The notes: generated from the letters alone by a model not told the origin. Counted from the first letter of the stretch, positions 1,470 to 48,440 are shown. The stretch: 64,000 nucleotides of DNA from a virus (IMGVR_UViG_2645727545_000002:64001-128000), one strand, 5' to 3'. Program-made: numbers and translations.

Positions 1470-1511
1470 AACATTTACACCTCCCAGATGAAAGTTAAAT
1501 TCTATTTATAT

Positions 1512-1885
1512 TTATATGTTGATAATTTCGACATCCTCCTTTGGAACGGTATGCCAATCGTCATAGAAGTAAATATATAATAAATCTGGATTAGGATGTA
1601 CTCTATACGCAACATATTTATTTACTTCTAAAATCCCAAATTGTTGTTGACCTCATAAATTATCAAAATACTGATTTACTTGCCTGTCTCTGAATTGACC
1701 TGTATACTGTCATCAGCATACAAAAAGGAAAAAGGTCTCAGAGCACCCTCCTGGAAACAGGCGGTATTGCCTAACTGACTGGTGACAGAAAGTTAAGCAA
1801 GTGAGCGTCAACTGATGTGAGCAATCTGGTGACAGCTCATGAAATCACTAACACCAAATCTTTTAAGTAAACATTTCTTTACCAT
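1512..1885 (-). pseudogene. Small gene (MVKKCLLKRFG/QQQFGILEVNK...) interrupted by a 200-bp insertion
   Basis: Removing 1653-1855 restores a continuous frame TTT GGT CAA CAA CAA. Confidence 0.65.
1653..1852 (+). mobile_element. 200-bp non-coding, structured, non-autonomous insertion flanked by ACC direct repeats
   Basis: Higher GC than flanks. ACC at 1650-1652 and 1853-1855. Nested stems, two CTG-GTGA-CAG hairpins, no terminal inverted repeats. Confidence 0.65.
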
Positions 1886-1926
1886 ACAAAATCACCAACA
1901 TTTTTATATTTTTAAATAATTTTTAT

Positions 1927-2277
1927 CTAACATTCTTCCATATATGGATTATCTTTTAACCTATAATCACATCCTTTTGCTAACAAAAATTGTTCCCATT
2001 TCAATTTATCTTCGCTTGTTAAAGAAAAATCCACTTCCAAACCACAATCATAAACTGTTGGCATCTTTAAAGTGATTATATCCTCTATCTCAAATTCTCC
2101 ACCTTCGCCATCATCCCAACCACCAGTTGTCATTTCTACTGTGATTTTATTCCATTCTTTGTCTCTTTCAATGTTTACAATCTTAGTAGGATTGAACATT
2201 TCAGTAAGAATAAATTTAATTTCTTCATCTGTTAAACTAAGAAATTCTCTGTATTGTAACATATAATTACACCTCAC
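1927..2277 (-). CDS. Hypothetical protein
   Basis: 116-aa ORF in the leftward operon. Confidence 0.7.
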   Translation of the reverse strand: MRCNYMLQYREFLSLTDEEIKFILTEMFNPTKIVNIERDKEWNKITVEMTTGGWDDGEGGEFEIEDIITLKMPTVYDCGLEVDFSLTSEDKLKWEQFLLAKGCDYRLKDNPYMEEC

Positions 2278-2282
2278 GGATT

Positions 2283-2699
2283 TTAATCTTTTGAATAATA
2301 TGGTTTATTTATAACATAAGAACCACATGGAACATATGTATTTTTGCAAACTTTACATACATTAACAGAGCATTTACCGTTTTCGTCCATATAAGCACAC
2401 TCATGACTAACTACTTCTTGTACAGCTCTTATAATATCTTTATCTTCTTCTTTTTCTCCCAAAGAATACCAATCAATGCCGGAAATAGATTTTTTATCCA
2501 ATTTCCATTCATTACCAATAAGTTCTACTGTCGCAGTATAAAAACCACAACCACAATCATTGTCTTCATACTCAAGTTCATTATCATAAAATCCAAACAA
2601 TATAATTCTCTTTATGCTTGTATTCGGATATTTTAATACATCGTTGATATAATACCATTTACCATTCACTTTAAATCCTGAACCATTAACCGATAACAA
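2283..2699 (-). CDS. Hypothetical protein (Cys-rich C-terminus)
   Basis: GAGGAGG SD and TTG start. Confidence 0.7.
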   Translation of the reverse strand: MLSVNGSGFKVNGKWYYINDVLKYPNTSIKRIILFGFYDNELEYEDNDCGCGFYTATVELIGNEWKLDKKSISGIDWYSLGEKEEDKDIIRAVQEVVSHECAYMDENGKCSVNVCKVCKNTYVPCGSYVINKPYYSKD

Positions 2700-2727
2700 T
2701 ATATTACCTCCTCATTTGATATAAAAC

Positions 2728-3438
2728 TTAGAATTCAACCGGATTTTTTAATTTAACAAACTTATCTCTATTTTCCACAAGAGCAGCTTGAGCAATGCTA
2801 TTAATCTTATTTTGACAAAACGCCTCGATCTCTCCTTTTGCTTCAAGAGCTGTTCTATCCATCTGTTCATCAAATTGTTCAACACAAAAATCTAAATTAC
2901 TTCCAATATTATATTTTACTTGTCTAAGTTGCGAAATAATTTCCTTGCGGTCTTTAACTCCAAGATTCTTTTTGTTGTCAATTGATTCCTGGATCTGATT
3001 TATTTGAGCTTGAACCTGTTCCATTGCTTTTGATATTGTATTACTAAATTCATTTCTAAATTGTTCTCTTTTCGAGTTGTTTTCTTTGATATAAGGAATA
3101 TTTCCGTCTTTTTCCGTAAATCGAATTGTACATGGAACTCCATCACCAACATTTAATGTAGAAATGCATTCTGCGAATTGAGAATAACTCATTTCTACCT
3201 TTGTTATTAAGCCACAACCATAATACCAATCATCATGTAAATGTCTGTCCTGTTTTCCATGTTTTAATGTCATAATAATTCTATCATTATGTTTAATACT
3301 ACTTCCAAATAGTGTGTTTTCTCCACCACTTACTCTTGAAAACCCAATCATTCCAAACGCAGGATGTTTAAATGTTTCTCTTTCCAAAGAAGCTCCCTGT
3401 TTCTCTACTGTTCTTTCTATTTCTTTATATTCAATCAT
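2728..3438 (-). CDS. Hypothetical phage protein with coiled-coil C-terminus
   Basis: 236-aa ORF with AGGAG SD. Confidence 0.75.
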   Translation of the reverse strand: MIEYKEIERTVEKQGASLERETFKHPAFGMIGFSRVSGGENTLFGSSIKHNDRIIMTLKHGKQDRHLHDDWYYGCGLITKVEMSYSQFAECISTLNVGDGVPCTIRFTEKDGNIPYIKENNSKREQFRNEFSNTISKAMEQVQAQINQIQESIDNKKNLGVKDRKEIISQLRQVKYNIGSNLDFCVEQFDEQMDRTALEAKGEIEAFCQNKINSIAQAALVENRDKFVKLKNPVEF

Positions 3439-3694
3439 AATAATCTCCTTTATATTCTTCCATAATAATCAATCCTACATTTCTTCCATTTCTTTTTACT
3501 TTAATAAACATCTTTTTCCGGAGTATTTTATTACAGTTTATACACCTTCGTCTTCTACTACAAAATTCTGTAATATCTTCAGAAGCTCCACATGGCTCAT
3601 CATTGTAATCAAAAAGCAAATCTCTAATTACTCTTTCTGTTATATAGTATCCCTTTTCTGAACCACAAAACGGGCATATTTTTTGTTCTTTCAT
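3431..3694 (-). CDS. Small zinc-ribbon protein
   Basis: CPFCG ... CINCN motifs. Confidence 0.7.
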   Translation of the reverse strand: MKEQKICPFCGSEKGYYITERVIRDLLFDYNDEPCGASEDITEFCSRRRRCINCNKILRKKMFIKVKRNGRNVGLIIMEEYKGDYYD

Positions 3695-3713
3695 AATTCC
3701 TCTTCACTTGAAA

Positions 3714-4808
3714 TCAATCTTTCAAACCATTTAATATTTCCAATCGTTTCTTGAACATTCCAACATATTCCGGGAAATATTCAAACCACTCATAATTCAC
3801 TTCTTTGATTTGATTTAATCCAATTTTTCCAACAGCATACAATGCAGCTTCTTTCTGGTTGACCTTTTTTCCGAAGCAAGTCTGACAATTAGAACCTTCT
3901 ATTCCATCATATGAGTTAAACGTCTTATTAAAATCCATCAGCGGATGAAGTGAAACTGGCTTGTTGTTTGCATTATTTACCAGAACTCCCCAGTTTCCCC
4001 AATGACGATCGGTATTTCCTACAAGATAGTCAACGATGTTCATCATATAATAATCATGTTTATCTAGCGACAAAATATATTTACGGATATTTCGATCATG
4101 GTTCTGTGAATAAATTTCAAATGCTTCCATAGACACAATGGAAAAGTCCTTTGATGTGATATTTTCACTTATAGTTACCGGTTCTTCAGCAAATACACTT
4201 CTGTTGTATATGACCTGCTTTACATCAAAACACTGACAAATTTTACTTGATAGAAGTTCCTTCTCGACAACTTCTATCCCTCCGTCTTTCAACAGAGAAA
4301 ATCCTTTTTCTGTCCGTTTCCAGGCTTTTGGGAAAACACCATTCGTAGATAAGTCTTTCGCCAGATCTTCATTATTTACCGTATATTGTTTTCCTCGCAG
4401 AGCAATATCTATAAAAATATTTTCAAGATGGTTATCATATAAATTGACTTCAGAAAATGTTATCTTTTCACCTTTATTTCTTACCCAGAAAACATCTGTC
4501 AATGATGTACACCTATATGATAACGCCACTTTTGCTCTATCCTTGTCCGTTACAGCCTGATTCATTCCTATACTGTTCAAAATTTCTTTAGCGTATTTTC
4601 TATCCAATGTGAGAACTCTTGTTGCACACCAATAATTGAAATTTGTAATATTATTAACAAGAGTATCAACATCTTCTTCTTCTTCAAGATATAGGTTATA
4701 CGGCATAAAACTTTTGTAATACACCTTACATCTTCCAGAAGAATCAATTCTTGCAACTCTTCTATCTTTATGCATAATTTCAAAAATATCGCTGTTCATA
4801 TTATACAT
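3714..4808 (-). CDS. HipA/CtkA-like Ser/Thr kinase
   Basis: GVFPKAW, LLKDG, DYLVGNTDRHWGNWG catalytic loop and PLMDFN. Confidence 0.8.
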   Translation of the reverse strand: MYNMNSDIFEIMHKDRRVARIDSSGRCKVYYKSFMPYNLYLEEEEDVDTLVNNITNFNYWCATRVLTLDRKYAKEILNSIGMNQAVTDKDRAKVALSYRCTSLTDVFWVRNKGEKITFSEVNLYDNHLENIFIDIALRGKQYTVNNEDLAKDLSTNGVFPKAWKRTEKGFSLLKDGGIEVVEKELLSSKICQCFDVKQVIYNRSVFAEEPVTISENITSKDFSIVSMEAFEIYSQNHDRNIRKYILSLDKHDYYMMNIVDYLVGNTDRHWGNWGVLVNNANNKPVSLHPLMDFNKTFNSYDGIEGSNCQTCFGKKVNQKEAALYAVGKIGLNQIKEVNYEWFEYFPEYVGMFKKRLEILNGLKD

Positions 4809-5151
4809 TCCTTTTCAAAATTTCCGTTACCTGCTGCGTAGTAACTCCATATACCTTTGCAACTTTTTTCTTGTCTTTGTATTTTTCATATTCTTCTATA
4901 ATGTCATTCTCTGTCCAGTTCTGTTCAATCGGCTCATTCATAAAGTTTTCCATCATGGTTTCTCCAATTTTCCAATTTTCCAAAATACTCTCTACGGAAT
5001 CATACGGACAAAACAACTTCCCGCTTCTCAACATAATTACATCAACCTTTTTCTTATCTCTGTAGATTTTCGTAAGTTCTGTGCTTATCTCATATGTTTG
5101 TCCTGTGCGAAACCCCATACTTCCGTCTCTACCAATATATTTTCCTCTCAA
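4801..5151 (-). CDS. Hypothetical protein with C-terminal HTH-like segment (possibly two genes; candidate kinase partner)
   Basis: KKVAKVYGVTTQQVTEILK; internal GGAG SD before MMENF. Confidence 0.55.
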   Translation of the reverse strand: MRGKYIGRDGSMGFRTGQTYEISTELTKIYRDKKKVDVIMLRSGKLFCPYDSVESILENWKIGETMMENFMNEPIEQNWTENDIIEEYEKYKDKKKVAKVYGVTTQQVTEILKRNV

Positions 5152-5186
5152 TATCGTACCTCCATTACATATTATTTTAACACATA

Positions 5187-6187
5187 TTACAAATCAAGTA
5201 CAGCATCTGCTATAGTAGATTCATCCATGTGTACATAGTATCTTGCTGCTGTTTCCAAATTCTTGTGCCTTAATTGTCTTTGAACAAGAACAATATCTTT
5301 TGTTTCTTCATACAATTTACTTCCAACCCAATGTCTTAACATATGTGGGTAAATTTCACCTTCCGAATATAAATTAAAAAACCCTGTAATTGCACCTTTA
5401 CTTAATCTGTTATTTTCATTTGATAAAAACAATGCATTATCTTTAATTTTTCTCTCTGTTACGAAAAAAGTTCTAATTTTCAAATACTCCTCAATATTCA
5501 TTCTAGCCTGTTCAGACATATAAACTTTATCATATTCTTGTATATTTCCCTTTCCAAGAATCATCATATACGGTCTTTTTTCTTCGTATAGATGTAAATC
5601 GGAAATATCCATATTTATTAGCTCTTCTGAACGAATACCACTTCCTTTTATAAGTTGAACAATGGCAATATTTCTAATAATATTAAATTCATTTTTATTT
5701 CCATTCTGTGATATTTACTAAGAATTTTTCCACTTGCTCATCTGTAGGGATTTCTACTTCTTTATATTTTTTTTCAGATTTATATAGATTGCCAGGTATA
5801 TGTGAAATCACATTATCATCGACATATTTATTTTGTCGTAAATAATTCCAAAAAGCACTGAATACATTCTTCTTTGTATTGATAGAATCCAGTGAATTTG
5901 TTCTTCCTAAAAATCCATTTTTTAATTCGTTAAGATATTTAATAAGATTATTACTAGTAATAATCTGCATATCTGTTTCATTGATTTCTGCTATGCTTTG
6001 TTTATTTATATATTTATTATTGATCATCCAATTAAGCATGTCTCTAATATATATCCAATTAACTCTCTTTGTAGCCGCTGATTTATATCTATCAAAAAAA
6101 TCTGATATAAAATCAGGAATATCTTTTAATTCTTTTGCAAGTTTTTGTTTCTATTTTTTCTTTTGTTTTTCAATTTTTATAACACAT
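5187..6187 (-). CDS. Tyrosine recombinase (XerC/D-like), split by homopolymer frameshifts
   Basis: SGIRSEEL, HMLRH and LRHKNLETAARYY catalytic motifs across ORFs 5695-6039 and 5187-5612. ATG at 6187. Confidence 0.85.
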
Positions 6188-6198
6188 ATAATATTCTC

Positions 6199-6444
6199 CT
6201 AAAATCCCAATGCTTCTGCAATATCTATTTTCTTTTGTAAATATTCTAATGCAGACAATCGTTCTGCAAATTCTTTTGATTCTTTTCCATGAAAATAACT
6301 AATCTCCCACAAGTCTCCATCATCTGTTCTATAATATTTCTGTTCTTGTGGCTTATTATTCCGAGTAAGGTATTCATATACATTTCGACAATACAATTTT
6401 TCATATTCTCCTAATAGAATATCTTCTCTTTTAATCTCCTTCAC
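6199..6444 (-). CDS. Hypothetical protein
   Basis: 81-aa ORF with GTG start and SD. Confidence 0.65.
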   Translation of the reverse strand: MKEIKREDILLGEYEKLYCRNVYEYLTRNNKPQEQKYYRTDDGDLWEISYFHGKESKEFAERLSALEYLQKKIDIAEALGF

Positions 6445-6771
6445 ATTTAATACCTTCTTTCTTTAAAATCGTGTTCCATGTAATAAACCTTCGGCTTTCA
6501 TTTCTGTAGCGAATTCAAAATCAACGTTGCAAATGTTGTAACTGTTATACATGGAGTTCTCCATATTCTTTATTCCCCTTTTTACTCTTTTACTTTGTTC
6601 TTTGAACAAATATTCCATGCTATCCTTTTCTCTTCTCATAATATTCCTCCTGTTTTTGCAATAAAAAACAATCAGATATCCCCGATTGTTTTAATTGATT
6701 AGCTTTCTTTTCTTATATACACTACAAAAGTCACCAGGACAATTTCTGATGACTTCTAACTATACATACAC

Positions 6772-6909
6772 TATCTTCCTTTTTTTGCTTTCTTCCATTC
6801 ATATTCCCATCGTTCATCTTCTGACATTTTACTTGTCTTATGATCTTCCGCCAATGTAAACAAACCTCCAATAACAAGAACAATCAACCCAAAAATAATT
6901 CCACCCATA
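6772..6909 (-). CDS. Small single-pass membrane peptide (MGGIIFGLIVLVIGGLFTLAEDHK...)
   Basis: GGAGG SD; hydrophobic N-terminus and charged tail; below the ORF-track cutoff. Confidence 0.55.
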
Positions 6910-7028
6910 ATGTTTACCTCCAAATATTTTTTACTTTAAACTATCACTGAGATTTTCCAAAAACGCACATAGCATCAATAAAAATATTCCTCCAATTAAC
7001 GCTCCCATATGCATATCCCCACCCTTCA

Positions 7029-7580
7029 TTATCCATTATATATGTAAGCACACTTATGTGCAACACCACTCTGCGTTCTTCCTAACTCTTTTGCAACTTC
7101 TCTATAAGACATTCCTCTACGCAACATGGATTTTGCATAGTTTATTTCCATATCTGTCCAGTATTTTCCTTTGTTTGGTCTGTCATATGAGAATTTTTCA
7201 CACCTTACCCACGCCGGTTCCAAAGCCAATGTCATACAATTATACCTAGACCAGTTGATAATATCCTTATGCTGTTCAGCCCATTTCCAAAAATTTTCAA
7301 GATCAATCATATATTTTGTGCAGCACGAACATTTAAATTTCCGACATGGAAGATCATATTGATTTATCCACTTCATGACTACCTTATGAGTAACATTGAA
7401 ACCCTCAGCAAGTTTATTCACGCTTAAAACATCATGCACCTTGCTCAAGCCCATATCCAAAGCCTTTTTTACAACTGCACGTTCTGTTCTATTAAGTCTT
7501 TTTGCTGTAATTGACACAGCCTGATTCAAATATTTTGATTCCAAGTACTTTATTTCTCGTTCTGTCCATCTTCTAGCCAT
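7029..7580 (-). CDS. Multi-HTH/Myb-like DNA-binding protein
   Basis: WTEREIKYL...AKRLNRT and WTDMEINY...AKELGRT repeats. Confidence 0.7.
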   Translation of the reverse strand: MARRWTEREIKYLESKYLNQAVSITAKRLNRTERAVVKKALDMGLSKVHDVLSVNKLAEGFNVTHKVVMKWINQYDLPCRKFKCSCCTKYMIDLENFWKWAEQHKDIINWSRYNCMTLALEPAWVRCEKFSYDRPNKGKYWTDMEINYAKSMLRRGMSYREVAKELGRTQSGVAHKCAYIYNG

Positions 7581-7582
7581 AT

Positions 7583-7891
7583 CTACACAATCTCTCTTGG
7601 AATATAATCTGCTAAATAATCTTCTTTCCTCTCTTTGAAACGTATTTTTAAATATCCAACATAGTGGAATTTAATTCCATTCTCTTCGAGCAATCCCTTA
7701 AAAATATCTCCAATAGGTTCACATACATCTGTACATGAATTAAACTTTCTAGTTGCTTCTCCGGCAAGACTCTCCACCTCTCTCTGTCTATCTAATGGAA
7801 TCTGATATACTTCTGGTCTTGCTCCGTAACCTTCTTTGTATTCATTGTTATAGGTTCCATCAAAATCCAATACAAATAATGTCCACATCAT
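7583..7891 (-). CDS. Hypothetical protein
   Basis: 102-aa ORF with AAGGAG SD. Confidence 0.7.
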   Translation of the reverse strand: MMWTLFVLDFDGTYNNEYKEGYGARPEVYQIPLDRQREVESLAGEATRKFNSCTDVCEPIGDIFKGLLEENGIKFHYVGYLKIRFKERKEDYLADYIPREIV

Positions 7892-7965
7892 AATTTCTTA
7901 CTCCTTTATTTCCTGCTGCCAATTCTTTTAATATTGTCATTTCTCTCTCAAAAGAAATGTGAATT

Positions 7966-8202
7966 TCATTCTGCTTCCTCTAGCTTAACCGCTACGAGTT
8001 CATCTCCTCTAAATGTTGTAAATCCAAATGTAAACTGGAAATTGTAATCTTCCCTAAAACCTTTTTTAATCATATCTCTTATATCTTTAATGGTTTTTTC
8101 AGTATCTTCTTTGTTGTCATCTTTTTCAAATATAATTTTTTCATCAATTACATTTCCATTTCTCAAATAAAATTTACCTACAATTGTTACTTCCTTATCC
8201 AT
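7966..8202 (-). CDS. Hypothetical protein
   Basis: GGAGG SD before MDKEV; the longer ORF-track start lies inside the junction palindrome. Confidence 0.65.
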   Translation of the reverse strand: MDKEVTIVGKFYLRNGNVIDEKIIFEKDDNKEDTEKTIKDIRDMIKKGFREDYNFQFTFGFTTFRGDELVAVKLEEAE

Positions 8203-8247
8203 TATTTTTTCCTCCAATTCTACAATAAGAAATGCGACTTTCATTAG

Positions 8248-8490
8248 TTATTTAATATACCATGAGTCTGTTTCAACAAACTCGATATGCTCCAAGTTAG
8301 AATTATATTCCTTTAATTTTTCCTTGTATTTATCTAATAAACTTCCGCCTTTACCTATCATAAATCCAGGTTTATCTGTACAAACTTTAATTGTATCTCT
8401 TAATTCTGGGAATACTCCAAGGAGAATCATTCCTTTTACTCCTGCTTCTTTCTTCCATTCTTTAAAAATGCTTGAAATTTCTTCTCTCAT
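8248..8490 (-). CDS. Stand-alone KH-domain protein resembling the ribosomal protein uS3 N-terminal domain
   Basis: IKVCTDKPGFMIGKGGSLLDKYKEKL matches the uS3-type T.RPG.xIG.xG KH motif. Confidence 0.7.
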   Translation of the reverse strand: MREEISSIFKEWKKEAGVKGMILLGVFPELRDTIKVCTDKPGFMIGKGGSLLDKYKEKLKEYNSNLEHIEFVETDSWYIK

Positions 8491-8523
8491 ACTATATAAA
8501 CCTCTTTTCTTGAAATACGAGTT

Positions 8524-8706
8524 TCAAAGAAAACCCATCAACTGATTTTCTAACATTTCTTCCAATTCATCATCTACACTACAATTATGATCACATTCTG
8601 GATTGCAGCAAACACACCGTACTTCTGGATAATGTTTGCATTGTCCTGTTTTATTAATATTCTTTCTATAACTTTTTCCATCTTTTTCGATTATTTGAAA
8701 AGCCAT
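8524..8706 (-). CDS. Small Cys-rich protein
   Basis: 60-aa ORF with CVCCNPECDHNC. Confidence 0.6.
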   Translation of the reverse strand: MAFQIIEKDGKSYRKNINKTGQCKHYPEVRCVCCNPECDHNCSVDDELEEMLENQLMGFL

Positions 8707-8847
8707 ATTAAAAGCCCCCTTAGATAAATTTCCGATTTTATCTTGAGATACTATCCTTTGTAGCCTTCGTATTTACACAATAATCAACTTCAATTTCTGC
8801 CACTTCTCCGTCTTGTAAATTACTAAATACAGTTCTCTCATAATTAT

Positions 8848-9231
8848 CTAATGTGATAATTTTGTGATTTTAACAATCCCATCTTCGTTATATACTTTTA
8901 TTTTCATATCAAACCTCCTAATAAAATCCTGATTTCCTATTATTATTTTATTTTTAATTTCTGTTCCGCATATAGGACAGAATTTTACTTTATCCATATC
9001 TGTTCCAAAATCATAACCACAACAAGAAGTTACACCGTCTACTAGATATGAAAACTCATTCATTTCATTTGTTTCGAACCATGAATTTGTACAATTATAT
9101 GGTGCTTGTCTACGTCCTTCAAAAATATCATTCTCTACAATCTCTTCCGCTTCTTCTTTACTATTTGCTTCTACTTCATATGATTTGCTATATGTTTCAT
9201 AATAATCTACAATATATTTTGCCATAATCAT
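8848..9231 (-). CDS. DpnD/PcfM-like protein with zinc ribbon (ORF reads through into the next small gene)
   Basis: YEVEANSKEEAEEIV motif and FCPICG. A separate GGAGG SD precedes MKIKVY at ~8907. Confidence 0.6.
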   Translation of the reverse strand: MIMAKYIVDYYETYSKSYEVEANSKEEAEEIVENDIFEGRRQAPYNCTNSWFETNEMNEFSYLVDGVTSCCGYDFGTDMDKVKFCPICGTEIKNKIIIGNQDFIRRFDMKIKVYNEDGIVKITKLSH

Positions 9232-9237
9232 TTCCTC

Positions 9238-9597
9238 CTATAATCCCATCAAATCTTTTCCGACACTAACACCATAAGTTTCTTCAAACCACTCCCAAAT
9301 TTCCTCTCGGTGTGTTCCTGCGGCAAATCCGTTCCACTCTTCCTCAATACATTCTGTTTCAGGATTCATTGGAACGTCTCCGAATTCTAACCACAAATTC
9401 TCGATATATTCTGCACGCCTGTATTCAAAGCTATCGTTCAGACCACGATTAACGATACATGCTAAATCAGCATCTGTGATTAAGAATTTCCGTTCTGTGC
9501 AATAGTCCATTATCGCATTGTATTCCTTATCACAAAATTCTGTATCATCTTCAATCTGATCAATTTTCAGTTCTTTTAGATATTCTCTTAATGACAT
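9238..9597 (-). CDS. Hypothetical protein
   Basis: FGDVPMNPETECIEEEW...GTHREEIWEWFEE; likely start MSLREY. Confidence 0.65.
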   Translation of the reverse strand: MSLREYLKELKIDQIEDDTEFCDKEYNAIMDYCTERKFLITDADLACIVNRGLNDSFEYRRAEYIENLWLEFGDVPMNPETECIEEEWNGFAAGTHREEIWEWFEETYGVSVGKDLMGL

Positions 9598-9598
9598 A

Positions 9599-9808
9599 CT
9601 ATTTTCCCTCTTTCCAATGTTCCATATCTTCATTTTTCAATGCGATCATTTCCAACATTTGCAGCGTACTGAAACATTCATTTTGTTTTAAAATTTCCAG
9701 TTCTTCTGTGATACACTTTACTTCTTCATCTTTGTATTCTAAAGAGTCCGCATAATCCATATCTAAAGACAGATTATATAATATTTTCGCAATTTTCTGT
9801 GTGTCCAT
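9599..9808 (-). CDS. Hypothetical protein
   Basis: 69-aa ORF with SD. Confidence 0.65.
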   Translation of the reverse strand: MDTQKIAKILYNLSLDMDYADSLEYKDEEVKCITEELEILKQNECFSTLQMLEMIALKNEDMEHWKEGK

Positions 9809-9835
9809 GTTGTTTCCCTCTCTAAAATCTGTATT

Positions 9836-10048
9836 TCAATTAGAATCGCTTATTGCACACGAATCAGCTATGAAAAGTTTTCCATTATATATACTTGCAT
9901 TTGTATCACTGTCTTGATACATTCTTTCATTTTGAAAATCGTAATTACTATATCCCTCACAACAAACAAAAACTTGCGTATCGTCTGACATATCTTTAAT
10001 AAATTCTCTTAATTCCCCTACTGTCACTATTTTCTTATTTTCGTTCAT
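9836..10048 (-). CDS. Hypothetical protein
   Basis: TVGELREFIKDMSDDTQV, a common small phage-protein pattern. Confidence 0.65.
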   Translation of the reverse strand: MNENKKIVTVGELREFIKDMSDDTQVFVCCEGYSNYDFQNERMYQDSDTNASIYNGKLFIADSCAISDSN

Positions 10049-10519
10049 AATCTTTCCATCCTATCATGTAAATTTTATAAAAATTCATTCCCGGTAATCA
10101 CAAGCAGCACATTATATAACACTCTGAAGCAATCCTTATTATATTCTTTCTGTGCCATTGCTTGTAAAAGTGTTACAACGCATTTTATTTGATGCTATAA
10201 TTTGCAGAATTCGGAAAATTAAAAACATCCCATTTTTAGCCTTGTTATAACGGTAATAATTTTTTCTATTACTGTTATAACAAGGATTCCGGGGGTTCGG
10301 GGGATGGAAGATCCCCGTATTATTTCTGCACTATTTATTTTTCTGAAAATGGCATATTATAATGTGCTGATCAACATAAAAGATCTAAACCATTTTTCAA
10401 TTCTTGTTTCAATTCTTCTGATCGTTCCAGATTAGATAATTCAATCAACTGTTCTACCACATCTTCAATGTCATAATATGAATTTTCTCTGTACTGCTTT
10501 AGTTCTTCCATAATCATTT

Positions 10520-10774
10520 TTATACTTTTTCACCTTTTCTTTCTAATAAGTTAATTCCTTTATCAAGTAGATAAAATGTATCTGCTTGAATTGATTTACA
10601 TCCTTTATCTACATATCCTAATTCACATAGTTTTATTAATTTTCTATATGTAGTTGGTCTTGATGTTTTTGTAATTTTCATAATTTCCTGAATTGTCATA
10701 CCCTCAATAAAATTAGTACACTCATTCTTTTTCAGTAACTTCATAATAACAACGTCTAATCTGCTAATTTCCAT
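10520..10774 (-). CDS. Winged-helix DNA-binding protein
   Basis: MTIQEIMKITKTSRPTTYRKLIKLCELGYV. Confidence 0.7.
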   Translation of the reverse strand: MEISRLDVVIMKLLKKNECTNFIEGMTIQEIMKITKTSRPTTYRKLIKLCELGYVDKGCKSIQADTFYLLDKGINLLERKGEKV

Positions 10775-10824
10775 TATTTCTCTACCCTTTTCACTTTATC
10801 GTTTGAAAGCGTTCTTTTATTGTG

Positions 10825-11064
10825 TTACTGGATATAGGCAATCAGATTATTTTCTGTTTCGTCTGCAATCTGATAATCTAACCACCATTCGTGTATGGTT
10901 TCTTCTAACTGTTCTTTAGATATTGTACGCTTTAGATCATCCACTTTAGGCTTTAATTTTTCCGTTTCATATTCAACTACGAGACGTTCCTGTTCTAACG
11001 TCATGTCATCGTATGTAATAGTTTTTAATAACGATTCAATTAGTTTTGTTTTAATTTCTTCCAT
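10825..11064 (-). CDS. Hypothetical protein
   Basis: AAGGAG SD before MEEIK. Confidence 0.6.
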   Translation of the reverse strand: MEEIKTKLIESLLKTITYDDMTLEQERLVVEYETEKLKPKVDDLKRTISKEQLEETIHEWWLDYQIADETENNLIAYIQ

Positions 11065-11097
11065 AGTAATGTCTCCTTTCAAAAGATATAGCAGCCG

Positions 11098-12266
11098 TTA
11101 AGCTGCTCTATCAAGTTGTGTTTTAAAATTTTCAATATAATTTTCTCCAGCAATATTGATCGGAAGAATCAAGAAATTGTACCCGTTTCCATCAATGTAC
11201 ATTGGAGCATTTCCTTGGCTTCCTCTGAATACCGGATTCTCTGAATCAATAACTGATAATGCATCCATAAGATAATGTGAATTGAATCCAATAAATAAGT
11301 CCTCGTCCATTACAAGATTTTTCGTTTCAATCTCGTCAAAAGTTTGATATCTGGAAGTCTGCAAATATGTGTAAAGTTTTCCGTTCTCACTATGAAAGAT
11401 AGTAGGTTTCTTTTCTTCTTTTACCATATCTGCGTTATACTTCATAATTTTTAACATTTCTTCCCTATCAGCATTGAATACAAAATCTCTGCTATCGCAC
11501 AACATCTGTTCAATATTGAAATATTGTCCATCAATTCTTCTGATAACGTATGTAAAATCTTTTCCGGAAATTCTGATATATTTCTGATCCTGATATACTT
11601 TGACTCCCGCATCTGATTTTTTATCCATGATTTTCTTGAATACTGGCAAGCATTTCACATGGAGTTTTACAGTGTCAAATGGATTTTCCGTCACTGTTAT
11701 AATCTCCTGGCTATCAAGTGATCTCATCCCAATTCTGCGATTGTCCATAGCCTCTACACGCTTCCGCTTTGTGTTGAAGTTGAATACATTCAGCATTTTA
11801 TTAACGTCATCTCCTGTAACAAATAAAGAAAGATTGGCGATTGTTTCCAATAACCAACTCTCCGTTGTTGTAATAATGTGCGCTTCTGTATCATCCATTG
11901 CTGGAAGAAAAATATCTGTATTCGCATACCGTGGAATAGTAACAATCTTTTTTCCGCACTTTATGTTTATTCTCTGCTGCATTTCCGCGCTAACATCTTC
12001 CAGCGTAACATCTCCGCTCATTTTGGAAATGATCTTGATATCGTCAATGTCAATCCCCAAACGCCTGGACTTGTGTTCCATGTGTTGTCTGTCTTGACTT
12101 CTGCAAAATGTTCCATATCAGTTCCCCACATTTTCACCGTTCCATCTTCTTCGACCTGAATATATAACTTTTTCAAGCTGTCAAGTGTTGCTTTCTTGTT
12201 AATAGCTGCCATTCCTTTTCTCATAATTTCTTTTAAATCTTTTGCATTCATTGTAAATTTTAACAT
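11098..12266 (-). CDS. dnaN: DNA polymerase III beta sliding clamp homologue (one frameshift at ~12060)
   Basis: N-terminal MLKFTMNAKDL...GTDMEH and C-terminal IGFNSHYLMDALSVI...FLILPI clamp motifs. Confidence 0.75.
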
Positions 12267-12305
12267 TATTACCTCTCCTGCTCCTTATATAAAACATCAC
12301 TTTCC

Positions 12306-12593
12306 TTATTGCACGAATTCGATTTCCCACACATTAGATTGTTTGCAAACACCATCTTCAAATTTCCAATCAGAGGACTTTCCGTATTCTATCCAACTTC
12401 CTTTTCCATTGTTAGCTAATGTAATTTTGCTACCTGGTTTTCCATCTTCAATACTGTAAAATCCGTTTGTCTGTACTACATTCGGCTTTCTAATCTGCCC
12501 CTCACATTCTGATCTGATATAGTGTTTTCTAATAATAAATTTACGTCCCTCTTTGATTACTCTTTTTAACTGTGCTAAATTTTTAATTTCCAT
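12306..12593 (-). CDS. Hypothetical protein
   Basis: 95-aa ORF with GGAGG SD. Confidence 0.7.
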   Translation of the reverse strand: MEIKNLAQLKRVIKEGRKFIIRKHYIRSECEGQIRKPNVVQTNGFYSIEDGKPGSKITLANNGKGSWIEYGKSSDWKFEDGVCKQSNVWEIEFVQ

Positions 12594-12612
12594 GTTTATT
12601 TCCTCCCAATAA

Positions 12613-12795
12613 CTAATCCCTGTTACAATAATCTAAAAAAGCGCCTATTGTTTCTTCTGCTTCGCACCTAGTCAAATATCTTCGCTTTTTACTTTTCTTT
12701 CTATGTAATGGTAATCCACACATCTTGCGTTCATTATTTCTTAATAACATTTTGTCCGTTTTTTGTTTCTTCCTGGTATTTATGTTCATACTCAT
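12613..12795 (-). CDS. Small basic protein
   Basis: GAGGTG SD; 60 aa. Confidence 0.55.
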   Translation of the reverse strand: MSMNINTRKKQKTDKMLLRNNERKMCGLPLHRKKSKKRRYLTRCEAEETIGAFLDYCNRD

Positions 12796-13017
12796 TTCAC
12801 CTCTTAAAATCGTGCTTTCATCTTATTTACATTTTCATACACTCAATACAATTTTCAGCAATGTTACTCTCTGTTTTCCACTCGTCAATTCCAATACAAC
12901 GATTTTCACATGTTTCTTTCTCGTTACAACAAATACAACATTTTTTACATTTATCATTTTCTGGAACTGATATATCAATTAAGCATCTAAGCATTTTTAC
13001 TACCTCTCTATTTAAAA

Positions 13018-13500
13018 TTATCTTTTCATAGGTATCAATTCATCTTTATCAGCCACAAATTGATTAGCATTTTTTCTGTCGTTACAGTTTGGAAAATCAT
13101 CAACAGACACTTTTACTCTATCCATTGTTTCTAGCCCAATAACAGTAACAATTTTCCCGCAATGAGGATGTTCTACTTCAACCTGCTTCGTTGCTCTATT
13201 CATAGGATGCCATATAAATTTCATTCCTTCTTTGTATTCCAAACCATCTTTCATGTACTCTTTGCCTTGCCACTTATCAAAAGGAGTCCAATCATTTACT
13301 ACAAAACCACATCCATAAAAAGAACCTTCTGATACAAGATAATAATTTCCAGCTTTGCATACTCCAAAATCTTTCTTACAATAAATAACTTCACTTCCAT
13401 CAATGAAAAAATATTTTTTTAAATCCTGATATCCATAATCTTTTCTTTTATTACTAAATCTATAGGAATTACATTTCCAATTTTTAAATCTTTCCATCAT
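13018..13500 (-). CDS. Hypothetical protein
   Basis: 160-aa ORF flanked on both sides by the junction palindrome. Confidence 0.7.
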   Translation of the reverse strand: MMERFKNWKCNSYRFSNKRKDYGYQDLKKYFFIDGSEVIYCKKDFGVCKAGNYYLVSEGSFYGCGFVVNDWTPFDKWQGKEYMKDGLEYKEGMKFIWHPMNRATKQVEVEHPHCGKIVTVIGLETMDRVKVSVDDFPNCNDRKNANQFVADKDELIPMKR

Positions 13501-13584
13501 TATTTCCTCCTAATAAAATCATTATTTGTTTCCATAACATACGGAACAGCAAAAAGCTGTTCCTGACTGTTCCAAAGTTCTACG

Positions 13585-18918: not shown

Positions 18919-19128
18919 TTACCATTTATAAATATTTCCTTCAAAGTCATATAAAATTACTGTTTCTCCATCATCAGCAAGTTCCCATTGTGAAATATTT
19001 TCCAATGCATACTCCATTCGCTCAATGTGTGATTCTGGCTTTGCATGATCTGATGTGTTTTTTCCAACAAAAAAGCAACCGATTGCAACGGCTGCTAAAG
19101 TGACTATATATGCAATTTTCTTTTTCAT
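18919..19128 (-). CDS. Small membrane-anchored protein (N-terminus resembles 16114-16491)
   Basis: MKKKIAYIVTLAAVAIGCFFVGKN. Confidence 0.65.
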   Translation of the reverse strand: MKKKIAYIVTLAAVAIGCFFVGKNTSDHAKPESHIERMEYALENISQWELADDGETVILYDFEGNIYKW

Positions 19129-19147
19129 ATGTTTTTCCTCCATTTTA

Positions 19148-19330
19148 TTATCTATGTAATATTAATCCACTTTTTATCATGTCAAAAAACCATTCCTGAA
19201 AGTCATGGTATTCTGTTTTATCTACAATATCACGATAAACCTCTTTGAGCTGATCCTCTGTGAATGATCTGTCCATTACTTCCGGAAGTGATTCCCGGTT
19301 ATCTTCAGAAAAATAATATTTGTTTACCAT
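19148..19330 (-). CDS. Hypothetical protein, first gene of the leftward operon
   Basis: AAGGAG SD; 60 aa. Confidence 0.7.
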   Translation of the reverse strand: MVNKYYFSEDNRESLPEVMDRSFTEDQLKEVYRDIVDKTEYHDFQEWFFDMIKSGLILHR

Positions 19331-47391: not shown

Positions 47392-48440
47392 GTGATTAAA
47401 ATAGCACGAAGTACAGTTTATAATCAGATTACTTCTTCTGAAAAATTAGAACAAGTAAACCCTGAAAATAAAGAATTAGGAGAAGATTGGTTAGAGTATT
47501 TGGAATCTATTGATCGCTCTCCTCAAAGCATTGTTGCGTATAGAAGTGACCTAAATATATTTTGGGTATGGAATTTACAATACAATAAAAATAAATTCTT
47601 TGCTGATTTAACAAAACGTGAAGTTGCAAAATTCCAGAATCATGCATTAAATACATGGGGCTGGAGTCCAAACAGAATCCGTAGAGTTAAATCATGTCTG
47701 TCATCTTTGTCAAATTACATTGAAAATGTTTTAGATGATGAAGAAGAATTTGAAAATTATAGAGGGATTATAAGAAAAATTGAAAACCCAGCTAAAGAAG
47801 TTGTTAGAGAAAAAACTATTTTATCTGATGAACAAGTGGATTTCTTGTTGCAGGAATTAGTGAACAGAAAAGAATTCGAAAAAGCTTGCGCCGTTGCAAT
47901 AGCAGCTTACTCTGGAATGCGAAAAGGTGAGTTGTTACAGATGAAAGTAGAATTCTTTAATGATGACCATTTTGTATATGATTCCATGTGGAAAACTGAT
48001 AAAGTCAGGGCAAAAGGGTTCGGGAAATTAGGACATCAATTAAATAAATTTGTATTATATGGAGCAAAACCTTATATAGATTCATGGTTAGAGTATAGAA
48101 AAGAAAATGGAATTGAATCTGAATGGATGTTTGTATCATCTTATAGAGACGAAAACAATAATAAATGTTATAGGAAAAGAAAAAACTTGAGTGAATGGAC
48201 ATATGAATTTAGCGAAATTTTAAACGAAGATTTCTATTTTCATAGCCTGAGACATTTCACATGCACCAAACTACATCGCTTAAACTTGCCCTCACACGTT
48301 ATTCAAGAATTTTTTGGTTGGCAAAGCGCAGAGATGTTAAAATCTACAATGATCTTACTGCTGAAGACGAATTTAGCAAATATTTTGATAAAGATGGAAT
48401 TAAAGAGGTGACACAGGGTTATTTGTCTGATGTTTAATTC
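47392..48440 (+). CDS. Second tyrosine recombinase (3' frameshift at ~48340; end approximate)
   Basis: SGMRKGEL, FHSLRH and FFGWQSAEML; catalytic Tyr (IYND) in the shifted frame. Confidence 0.85.

Follow-up and report, generated by a model that had tools for sequence, protein, structure and literature searches.

The stretch of DNA analysed here, referred to as the window, comprises 64,000 nt, namely bases 64001–128000 of a single 136,328-bp virus contig (IMGVR_UViG_2645727545_000002). Between its small genes lies a recurrent inverted repeat, with arms of consensus (A/T)TGAAA and TTTCA(A/T) around a 6-bp centre. We conclude that these junction sites are very probably address-tagged crossover landmarks of accessory early-gene arrays. 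Judged from aligned relatives, they are the preferred in-register boundaries of gene exchange, which takes place essentially between sites of the same centre only, within a shared block of ~15–16 bp. The statement as a whole, that the sites are fixed, address-tagged crossover joints in an SPbeta-like lineage, the enzyme being left open, has in our estimate a probability of about 0.55. It is possible, but doubtful, that a tyrosine recombinase encoded in the array is the catalyst at the sites.

The genome, for which CheckV estimates a completeness of 81%, has a GC content of ~31% and carries ~165 mostly small genes on the minus strand, running leftward from genome ~84.6 kb to 58 bp. An earlier reading of the DNA, made from the sequence alone, had listed 14 sites; all of these fall in the minus-strand gene block and are therefore read on the minus strand here. 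Coordinates are those of the window unless marked as genome coordinates. The phage is SPbeta-like on the basis of a YomM homologue, a Sak4-like AAA_24 protein (genome 23389–24096) and a junction palindrome that it has in common with SPbeta. A megablast search of the region against the phage collection gave no match. In a scan of bacterial genomes, relatives of a clamp-like protein encoded in the array (11098–12060) were found only in Lachnospiraceae metagenome-assembled genomes, at 28% identity. With this protein as search anchor, we obtained a main comparison set of 20 IMG/VR loci of ~21 kb, at 54–100% identity. A second comparison region, separate from the clamp region, consisted of 71 loci anchored on a NAMPT-like gene. 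Sequencing runs from bovine gut, canine and wastewater samples were used as assembled contigs only.

All 14 of the 18-mers were found where the sequence-only reading had placed them. That reading described a 6-6-6 palindrome. The spacing of 6 held, but perfect 6/6 arms occur only at 3708 and 8510 (three further sites match at 5/6 arm positions and nine at 3–4/6), and the real core is 5-6-5. The sequence TGAAA-N6-TTTCA occurs 10 times in the genome, versus 0–2 times at each other spacing from 0 to 15. The expected enrichment over shuffled sequence was likewise obtained: dinucleotide shuffles (n = 300) contained 1.58 ± 1.32 copies and none reached 10. Within the interval that holds the 14 sites, 6 of 32 genes have GAAA-N6-TTTY in their upstream 60 nt, versus at most one gene at any other spacing, and in a de novo scan of all 5-mer palindromes TGAAA-N6 ranked second in this genome. 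The reduced pattern AAA-N6-TTT showed no enrichment across the whole window. Conservation drops to background outside the 5–6-bp arms, and the information content resides in the arms only.

The sites, which are symmetric, all share the orientation of the genes. As the sequence-only reading had it, each is placed between the upstream stop codon and the next Shine–Dalgarno sequence, the right arm ending 12–28 nt before the start codon. The stop codon, which was said often to lie inside the site, does so at some junctions (motif positions 2–4 or 9–12) but lies upstream of the site at others. This variable position rules out an artefact in which the motif simply arises from the stop codon. A mini-ORF (open reading frame) interpretation, in which ATGAAA..TTTCAA encodes M-K-x-x-F, was dropped: these ATGs have no Shine–Dalgarno sequence ahead of them, and the reading frame is not the same from site to site. 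Folding energies (mean −1.8 kcal/mol, three sites at or near zero) make an RNA hairpin unlikely, and a table of covariation between motif positions 3 and 16 was too noisy to use. The limits given for the array, 1488–13530, do enclose sites, but the motif is not confined to them: it spans genome 25–77 kb, with good members at genome 25857, 30979, 32460, 47349 and 52287. This genome (G000) also contains a second spacing-specific palindrome, AATTA-N10-TAATT, which occurs 9 times versus a mean of 0.8 at other spacings.

Phage genomes are mosaics. Because breakpoints are common in the hyperplastic region, also at junctions that lack a site, we compared the two classes of junction. The mean fraction of covering relatives in which a junction was broken was 0.71 for 12 strong-site junctions versus 0.29 for 31 other junctions. 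We further counted as recent events those in which a segment had been replaced or inserted while its flanks (400 bp or more) remained at least 97% identical; there were 41 distinct events of this kind. Homology restarted at a strong site in 27 of these, clustered at motif offsets 0 to 2, where ~28% would be expected if all junctions were equal; 31 of the 41 had at least one boundary at a strong site. The corresponding p-values, 4e-4 for the junction classes (Mann–Whitney) and 5e-7 for 27/41 (binomial), are inexact because the loci are related to one another. Homology that ends at a site stops at motif positions 15–18.

Alignment block ends and assembled contigs gave the same picture. According to blastn, block ends cluster at the sites, at 1499–1501, 2721/2735, 3711, 7970, 8230–8256, 8490–8523, 8738–8744, 8914–8936, 9821, 10800–10806, 12267–12294, 13012–13025 and 13482–13503. 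Contigs from the bovine-gut, canine and wastewater runs break or join at 7970, 8512–8513, 8919, 10804–10806, 12804–12823, 13011 and 13502. The sequence-only reading had named two outcomes that would refute it, a lack of enrichment at junctions and indel breakpoints unrelated to the motif, and neither was obtained. Breakpoints are concentrated at site junctions, indel breakpoints in relatives fall at the motif, and the gene shuffling that it proposed is seen as gain, loss and replacement of genes among relatives, with the sites as preferred boundaries.

The spacer had been described as fixed at 6 bp and varied in sequence. Its length is indeed fixed. When the sites were sorted by their six central bases, the sequence was found to differ by slot, yet it is not random but slot-specific. 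Eleven of the 14 centres recur among the 20 relatives in the same 16–18-bp island with at least three unrelated contexts on each side; those below this level are ttcaca (4 upstream and 1 downstream), gaacgc (2 and 7) and gtgatg (1 and 2). Flank diversity is widest for ATGAAA-agataa-TTTYAW, with 10 upstream by 10 downstream contexts. Arm variants move with their own flank, ATAAAA/ATGAAA with the upstream gene and TTTCAA/TTTTAT/ATTTAT with the downstream gene. The order of the centres is the same in all 20 loci: taatga, agataa, gcacga, (gtgatg), gaacgc, tacaga, tcagga, tcggaa, ctcgta, gtcgca, ttcaca, gattga, tatagg, tctaag, tttaac. Distances between centres differ several-fold between loci; for example, tcggaa and ctcgta are 212 to 1011 bp apart. 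Given the conserved order, cassettes are therefore swapped in an allele-like manner within a slot, not captured into an array.

The same islands emerged from an unbiased screen, in which all 12-mers were scored by the number of distinct contexts on both sides. Its top ranks include the site cores of agataa, gtcgca, tcagga, tcggaa, gcacga and ctcgta. The other high-ranking 12-mers were A-rich low-complexity words and Shine–Dalgarno words. In the NAMPT-anchored region, the 71 loci displayed the same spacing preference and the same kind of island, for the centres actgga, tgtctg and c[ct]gtga.

Exchange between unlike centres was almost absent, and one clear hybrid was observed. In L007, L012 and L016, ATAAAA-gaacgc of site 10803 is joined in register to TTTTAG-agaggg of site 9822, with removal of window 9822–10803. 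The joint lies at the boundary of spacer and arm, such that the left arm and centre are those of 10803 and the right arm is that of 9822. We infer that this hybrid is the expected remnant of an aborted or replicated exchange between unlike centres. Tandem or disrupted sites were rare. The only examples seen were L016, in which a tcggaa half-site adjoins the agataa site, and L015, in which two copies of ATAAAA-tcggaa lie ~900 bp apart.

Taken in gene order, the sites differ in the strength of their comparative record. The first, AACAAA-taatga-TTTTAT (13513–13530), is weak, with a poor left arm, and has 6 upstream and 7 downstream contexts; homology there mostly continues for ~10 nt more, into a common Shine–Dalgarno sequence. 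The next, ATGAAA-agataa-TTTTAA (13012–13029; 10 upstream and 10 downstream contexts, block ends at 13012–13013), contains the top 12-mer of the unbiased screen, AAAAGATAATTT. The gcacga site (12804–12821; 10 and 5 contexts) stands immediately before the clamp gene in most relatives. A further weak site, AGGAAA-gtgatg-TTTTAT (12289–12306), is limited to 4 loci (1 upstream context, 2 downstream) and adjoins a two-gene insertion ahead of the clamp gene. The gaacgc site (10803–10820) has 2 upstream and 7 downstream contexts and block ends at 10800–10806 in 11 loci, and metagenome contigs break within it at 10804 and 10806. The tacaga site (9822–9839) is its partner in the cross-site hybrid; comparative support is small for this site and for that at 12289.

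The tcagga site (8921–8938) has 6 upstream and 7 downstream contexts, with block ends at 8914–8936 in 12 loci. At the tcggaa site (8724–8741; 7 and 8 contexts), variation in the left arm follows the upstream flank, and variation in the right arm the downstream one. The perfect palindrome TTGAAA-ctcgta-TTTCAA (8510–8527) has 5 upstream and 6 downstream contexts and block ends at 8512–8523, and a bovine-gut contig breaks at 8512. The gtcgca site (8227–8244; 6 and 6 contexts) has the core AAAGTCGCATTT, which is among the top 12-mers of the screen. These last two sites enclose an example of a cassette, an 80-residue KH-domain gene on the minus strand (8248–8490; Pfam KH_2, 3e-5), which in relatives forms an isolated block of homology (window 8248–8523 or 8230–8490) with different neighbours. 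Its product is of the size of KhpA and of an RNA- or single-stranded-DNA-binding type, and its gene forms a single-gene cassette between the two best palindromes. Further along, ATGAAA-ttcaca-TTTCTT (7952–7969) has 4 upstream contexts and only 1 downstream, with a block end at 7970 in 8 loci; a wastewater contig links 7970 to 8513. The second perfect palindrome, TTGAAA-gattga-TTTCAA (3708–3725; 6 and 9 contexts, block end at 3711), holds the stop codon of the upstream gene within its centre. The interval ends with the tctaag site (2721–2738; 5 and 5 contexts, block ends at 2721 and 2734–2735) and with ATAGAA-tttaac-TTTCAT (1488–1505), which has 5 upstream and 3 downstream contexts in 10 relatives and block ends at 1499–1501.

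A related palindrome was found in SPbeta (NC_001884), which contains 34 copies of TAAAA-N6-TTTTA versus 0–4 at any other spacing. They lie mostly at gene junctions of the early array, many directly after a stop codon and before the next Shine–Dalgarno sequence. The phenomenon therefore extends to a laboratory model phage, with a different arm sequence. A full-text literature search for the motif string returned no paper, and searches for SPbeta palindromes or hotspots returned nothing relevant.

The sequence-only reading had also placed a tyrosine recombinase with intact catalytic motifs within the array. The motifs are kept, but in this genome the reading frame is split by a frameshift: the gene (5187–6187, minus strand; Pfam Phage_integrase, 1.5e-15) consists of an ORF for the N-terminal half (5695–6039) and one for the catalytic C-terminal half (5187–5612). 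The frameshift lies in 5612–5695, near ..ITEWK* / ..NGNKNEF, and may reflect either a sequencing error or inactivation in the recent past. The recombinase is an intact ORF of 331 residues in 14 of the 14 clamp-anchored relatives that cover it, and in 13 further contigs. The best models were XerS, XerA, XerC and XerD, and the best NCBIfam model, XerS, matched over the full length at 3e-35 (121.6 bits versus an equivalog cut-off of 267). The nearest solved structure is that of XerH (5jjv; 8e-11), with which the R, E, K, HxxR, H and Y residues align, all seven catalytic residues being kept. Similarity of the array recombinase to MrpR was not detectable. A second tyrosine-recombinase-like gene lies in the late block on the plus strand (47392–48411). 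It is a homologue of SPbeta YomM (28% identity, E = 8e-19) and is only 25% identical to the array recombinase. Its product has HSLRH and no obvious nucleophilic tyrosine in the C-terminal tail, ..GWQSAEMLKSTMILLLK.., and may be inactive or frameshifted near its end.

In form, the junction sites resemble those of Xer recombinases, and XerH and XerS are the nearest characterized relatives of the array recombinase. A Xer/dif core likewise consists of two inverted arms and a 6-bp centre, and the phage motif shows a strong preference for exactly 6 bp between the arms. In XerH, sequence-specific reading is limited to the inner 5 bp of each arm; the outer arm is contacted mostly via the backbone and the 6-bp centre is left uncontacted (PMC5241119). 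The 5-6-5 layout of the phage sites corresponds to this. The difH site of Helicobacter pylori and Campylobacter is (A/T)TGAAAA-N6-TTTTCAA (PMC3325230), and difSL of Lactococcus lactis, ..CCGAAAAACTGTAATTTTCTT.., has the arms CCGAAAA..TTTTCTT (PMC2965235). Compared with these published sequences, the phage arms TGAAA/TTTCA have the same core as TGAAAA/TTTTCA and CGAAAA/TTTTCT, but each is one A/T pair shorter. From the XerH contacts, difH and difSL, the phage sites therefore look like minimal cores of the XerH/XerS type. They differ from dif, which is a single chromosomal site that serves dimer resolution under FtsK control, in that the phage genome has ~20 or more sites with differing centres.

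The distribution of arm types is consistent with a link to the enzyme. Arms of the TGAAA type are enriched only in the clade that carries the recombinase, with 15 unique contexts at N6 versus 0–6 at other spacings. Relatives without the array recombinase have arms of the TAAAA type (14 contexts) or none. In G006, no tyrosine recombinase at all and no such motif were found. When the array recombinases of clades without this protein were compared with YopP and MrpR, no clear pairing of arm type and protein was apparent. A relative, L125 (G008:85000-91000), encodes a yopP-yopQ-mrpR-like trio of a 324-residue recombinase and proteins of 428 and 325 residues, the last with a short match to SPbeta MrpR (E = 1e-7 over 42 residues). 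G006 (L108–L114) is itself a complete 139.7-kb phage that has the NAMPT-like gene and lacks a tyrosine recombinase; it also contains LexA-box-like CGAAC-N4-GTTCG sites.

Comparison thus shows that when related phages meet, exchange takes place within the 15–16 bp common to same-centre joints. Flanking genes are thereby reassorted or replaced, with no gene cut and gene order unchanged. For the mechanism we make a proposal. The shared inverted arms suggest a binding site for a dimeric site-specific DNA-binding protein, and the leading candidate for binder and catalyst would be the XerS/XerH-like tyrosine recombinase encoded in the array. The overlap region would be supplied by the centre, whose identity would limit exchange to the same slot, as in heterospecific lox/FRT sites. 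The latter are engineered and have the same arms and different spacers; only sites with like spacers recombine, and a cassette is swapped in register. Shared arms and differing spacers are also the pattern seen here, and a natural counterpart is what we hypothesize. In its most specific form, which we hold tentatively, the proposal is one of natural recombinase-mediated cassette exchange by a phage Xer-type enzyme acting on dozens of minimal dif-like sites with slot-specific 6-bp overlaps. Co-infecting relatives would swap accessory genes slot by slot, intragenome deletions between unlike sites would be blocked, and in SPbeta-like phages with TAAAA arms the enzyme's part would fall to a paralogous protein that co-evolved with the sites.

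Among known systems, the integron was the first comparison, as the sequence-only reading had called the region an integron-like cassette array. There is likeness in the co-oriented, small and mostly promoterless genes, the 3′ palindrome and the stop codon that is sometimes inside it. The identification itself did not hold: IntI and attC are absent, cassettes do not move between slots and the order of centres is fixed. The integron-integrase model TIGR02249 scored 26.8 bits versus a cut-off of 265, matching residues 276–319 only. An attC site is tens of base pairs or longer, an imperfect palindrome with paired core sites; the phage sites, by contrast, are simple 5-6-5 palindromes of 16–18 bp. 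Moreover, no attI or Pc was recognizable, and the array recombinase lies in mid-array, co-oriented with the genes. The alternative raised in the same reading, operators of an MrpR-type repressor, found no support from analogy. SPBRE resembles the present case in being a repeated element of an SPbeta-type genome bound by a protein of the tyrosine-recombinase fold. MrpR is an inactive protein of this fold, without the catalytic residues (PMC10516654). We derived SPBRE as ..ACAAAWAATATGTATA.. upstream of 9 of 10 MrpR target genes (targets from PMC10516654), a sequence unrelated to T[AG]AAA-N6-TTT[CT]A, and the array protein keeps its seven catalytic residues. SPBRE overlaps promoters, whereas the sites described here are not at promoters, and the SPbeta palindrome is separate from SPBRE.

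Two further systems are closer. The T4-type PeSL (promoter-early stem-loop) is a short conserved motif between small non-essential genes of hyperplastic early regions, and comprises a strong sigma-70 promoter and a terminator stem-loop, all copies being alike (PMC2839356, PMC4122927). As with PeSLs, the motifs found here bound insertions, deletions and replacements between close relatives. The phage element differs in being 16–18 bp long, in having no promoter or terminator, in having its own centre in each copy and in its fixed order. Promoter-like sites were not enriched in our analysis (62 versus 63.1 in shuffles), and none was tied to a site; only two terminator-like hairpins were listed on the minus strand, both away from the sites. 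In Acinetobacter, pdif/dif modules are bounded by 11-bp XerC and XerD arms in alternating orientation and depend on the host XerC/XerD (PMC6449649, PMC13141974). They too are accessory modules delimited by Xer-type sites with inverted arms and a 6-bp centre, and they are shuffled between replicons. The phage arms differ from these in being 5–6 bp long, symmetric, co-oriented and unlike XerC/XerD arms, the order of modules is conserved, and the candidate enzyme is a single phage-encoded XerS/XerH-like protein. Overall, sequence comparison places the likely function of the sites closest to that of T4 PeSL linkers and to the linker idea of modular theory, and their form closest to Xer/dif cores and Acinetobacter dif modules. 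They are distinct from all the systems compared in that minimal symmetric arms occur together with a centre specific to the slot, a conserved order and a candidate enzyme encoded by the phage itself.

Several observations weigh against the reading of the sites as dedicated joints, some of which bear on the recombinase in particular. Xer proteins cover 10–11 bp per arm, and conserved Xer/dif arms are ~10–11 bp, as compared with 5–6 bp in the phage, whose arms are also one A/T pair shorter than those of difH. Only three clades underlie the association of arm type with recombinase, and the G008 recombinase, 28% identical and at the position of YopP, is found in a genome with no motif. The recombinase copy of the present genome is frameshifted, yet its sites are intact. 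In SPbeta, YopP and YomM have HSFK and HLFK in place of the expected HxxR, and MrpR is inactive (PMC10516654); if the phenomenon there operates with no active tyrosine recombinase, parsimony argues against one here. Mosaic breakpoints also occur at the site-free junctions 16683, 17327, 17734 and 19121–19325, where only a stop codon and Shine–Dalgarno sequence are common. Finally, a four-gamete test of gene families yielded 6 quartets only (2 with sites, 2 without and 2 mixed), too few to carry weight, and one of the site-free quartets is an artefact of families that share a C-terminus.

Much of this would be accounted for by ordinary short-homology recombination or template switching, through a Sak4-like annealase or replication, in which the 15–16 identical bases are the sole remaining homology. 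The palindromic arms would then be kept for another reason, for example by a regulator or another DNA- or RNA-binding protein, and no site-specific recombinase would take part. Such a process would amount to a pared-down version of the T4 PeSL mechanism, itself a precedent (PMC2839356), and of the Susskind–Botstein linker model. The phage has a Sak4-like annealase gene, as SPbeta has YorG (Sak4-like) and YorK (RecJ-like), which further counts against our reading; the presence of the annealase makes short-homology recombination a serious rival, though we consider it unlikely on balance. In line with it, apparent breakpoints span the entire identical block (motif positions 0–18), as predicted, and site-free junctions break as well; the recombinase gene of this phage is disrupted, and in SPbeta such sites coexist with no obviously active tyrosine recombinase. 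On the other hand, 15–16 bp is very short for exchange by RecA or an annealase, yet up to 10 by 10 flank combinations are found, and the 81%-complete genome revealed no RecT, ERF or RecA. Nor does short homology give a reason for common inverted arms at exactly 6-bp spacing or for a clade-specific arm sequence; the hairpins are too weak for a role in RNA, and no promoter or terminator is attached to the sites.

If the sites were instead operators of a phage regulator of early genes, a helix-turn-helix (HTH) dimer or an MrpR-like protein, selection would keep them while illegitimate recombination swapped their neighbours. Palindromes of 4-6-4 or 5-6-5 are typical of dimeric regulators, and the array encodes small HTH proteins at 10520–10774 (winged HTH; PHROG transcriptional regulator, 3.9e-11) and 7029–7580. 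In addition, G006 has 13 copies of CTTTA-N6-TAAAG and no tyrosine recombinase, and repeated 5-6-5 palindromes therefore need none. Nevertheless, we regard operators as improbable. The sites lie between stop codon and Shine–Dalgarno sequence within long co-oriented operons in which promoter-like sequences are not in excess, MrpR binds a different sequence, and tandem or disrupted sites, the expected product of random illegitimate joining, were seen only in L016 and L015. Selection on an operator also does not account for an identical, non-contacted 6-bp centre in each slot while the flanks were replaced many times. A true integron-like system, with promoterless cassettes that carry their own sites, leave as excised circles and are taken up at an attI-like site by the embedded integrase, is very improbable. 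Many of the co-oriented small genes do have a 3′ site, and L016 and L015 look as though a gene had carried its left arm and centre into another slot, but the integrase score, the 16–18-bp sites and the lack of a recognizable attI or Pc speak against it, and the order of centres, conserved in all loci with almost no exchange between unlike ones, largely refutes it. Least credible of all are chance matches in AT-rich DNA combined with ordinary junction features, namely an A after the stop codon and a run rich in U ahead of the Shine–Dalgarno sequence. The 9 of 14 sites with only 3–4/6 matching arm positions and the lack of window-wide enrichment of AAA-N6-TTT are what chance would give. The spacing specificity, the shuffles, the variable position of the stop codon and the complex, GC-containing centres with many flanks are not, and chance is refuted for the site family as a whole; weak members such as 12289 may still be of this kind.

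To our knowledge, there is little evidence, apart from T4 PeSLs, for the linkers predicted by the modular theory of phage evolution. Here, an entire lineage of large gut phages appears to possess ordered, address-tagged joints for the exchange of accessory genes, and SPbeta has the same kind of site with other arms. They would constitute a concrete mechanism for the fast turnover of large early-gene arrays without gene breakage, testable in Bacillus subtilis. Should a recombinase read the sites, they would also offer a set of orthogonal recombination sites, a natural toolkit ready for use.

Two further elements were noted in the same interval. One of the two minus-strand terminator-like hairpins listed in 12 kb, AGCAGC-TTAACG-GCTGCT followed by a T-run, resembles an intrinsic terminator and lies at 11090–11107, directly after the clamp-like gene. 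The other element is a non-coding stretch of ~206 bp (10171–10377) that contains the GC-rich hairpin GGGGATGGAAGATCCCC. Contigs in three samples jump from 10164 to 10377, the joint being ambiguous by 6 bases. Separate contigs also contain the element, at much greater depth (~93–145 versus 3–19, two runs); it is perhaps a structured RNA or a mobile element of small size.

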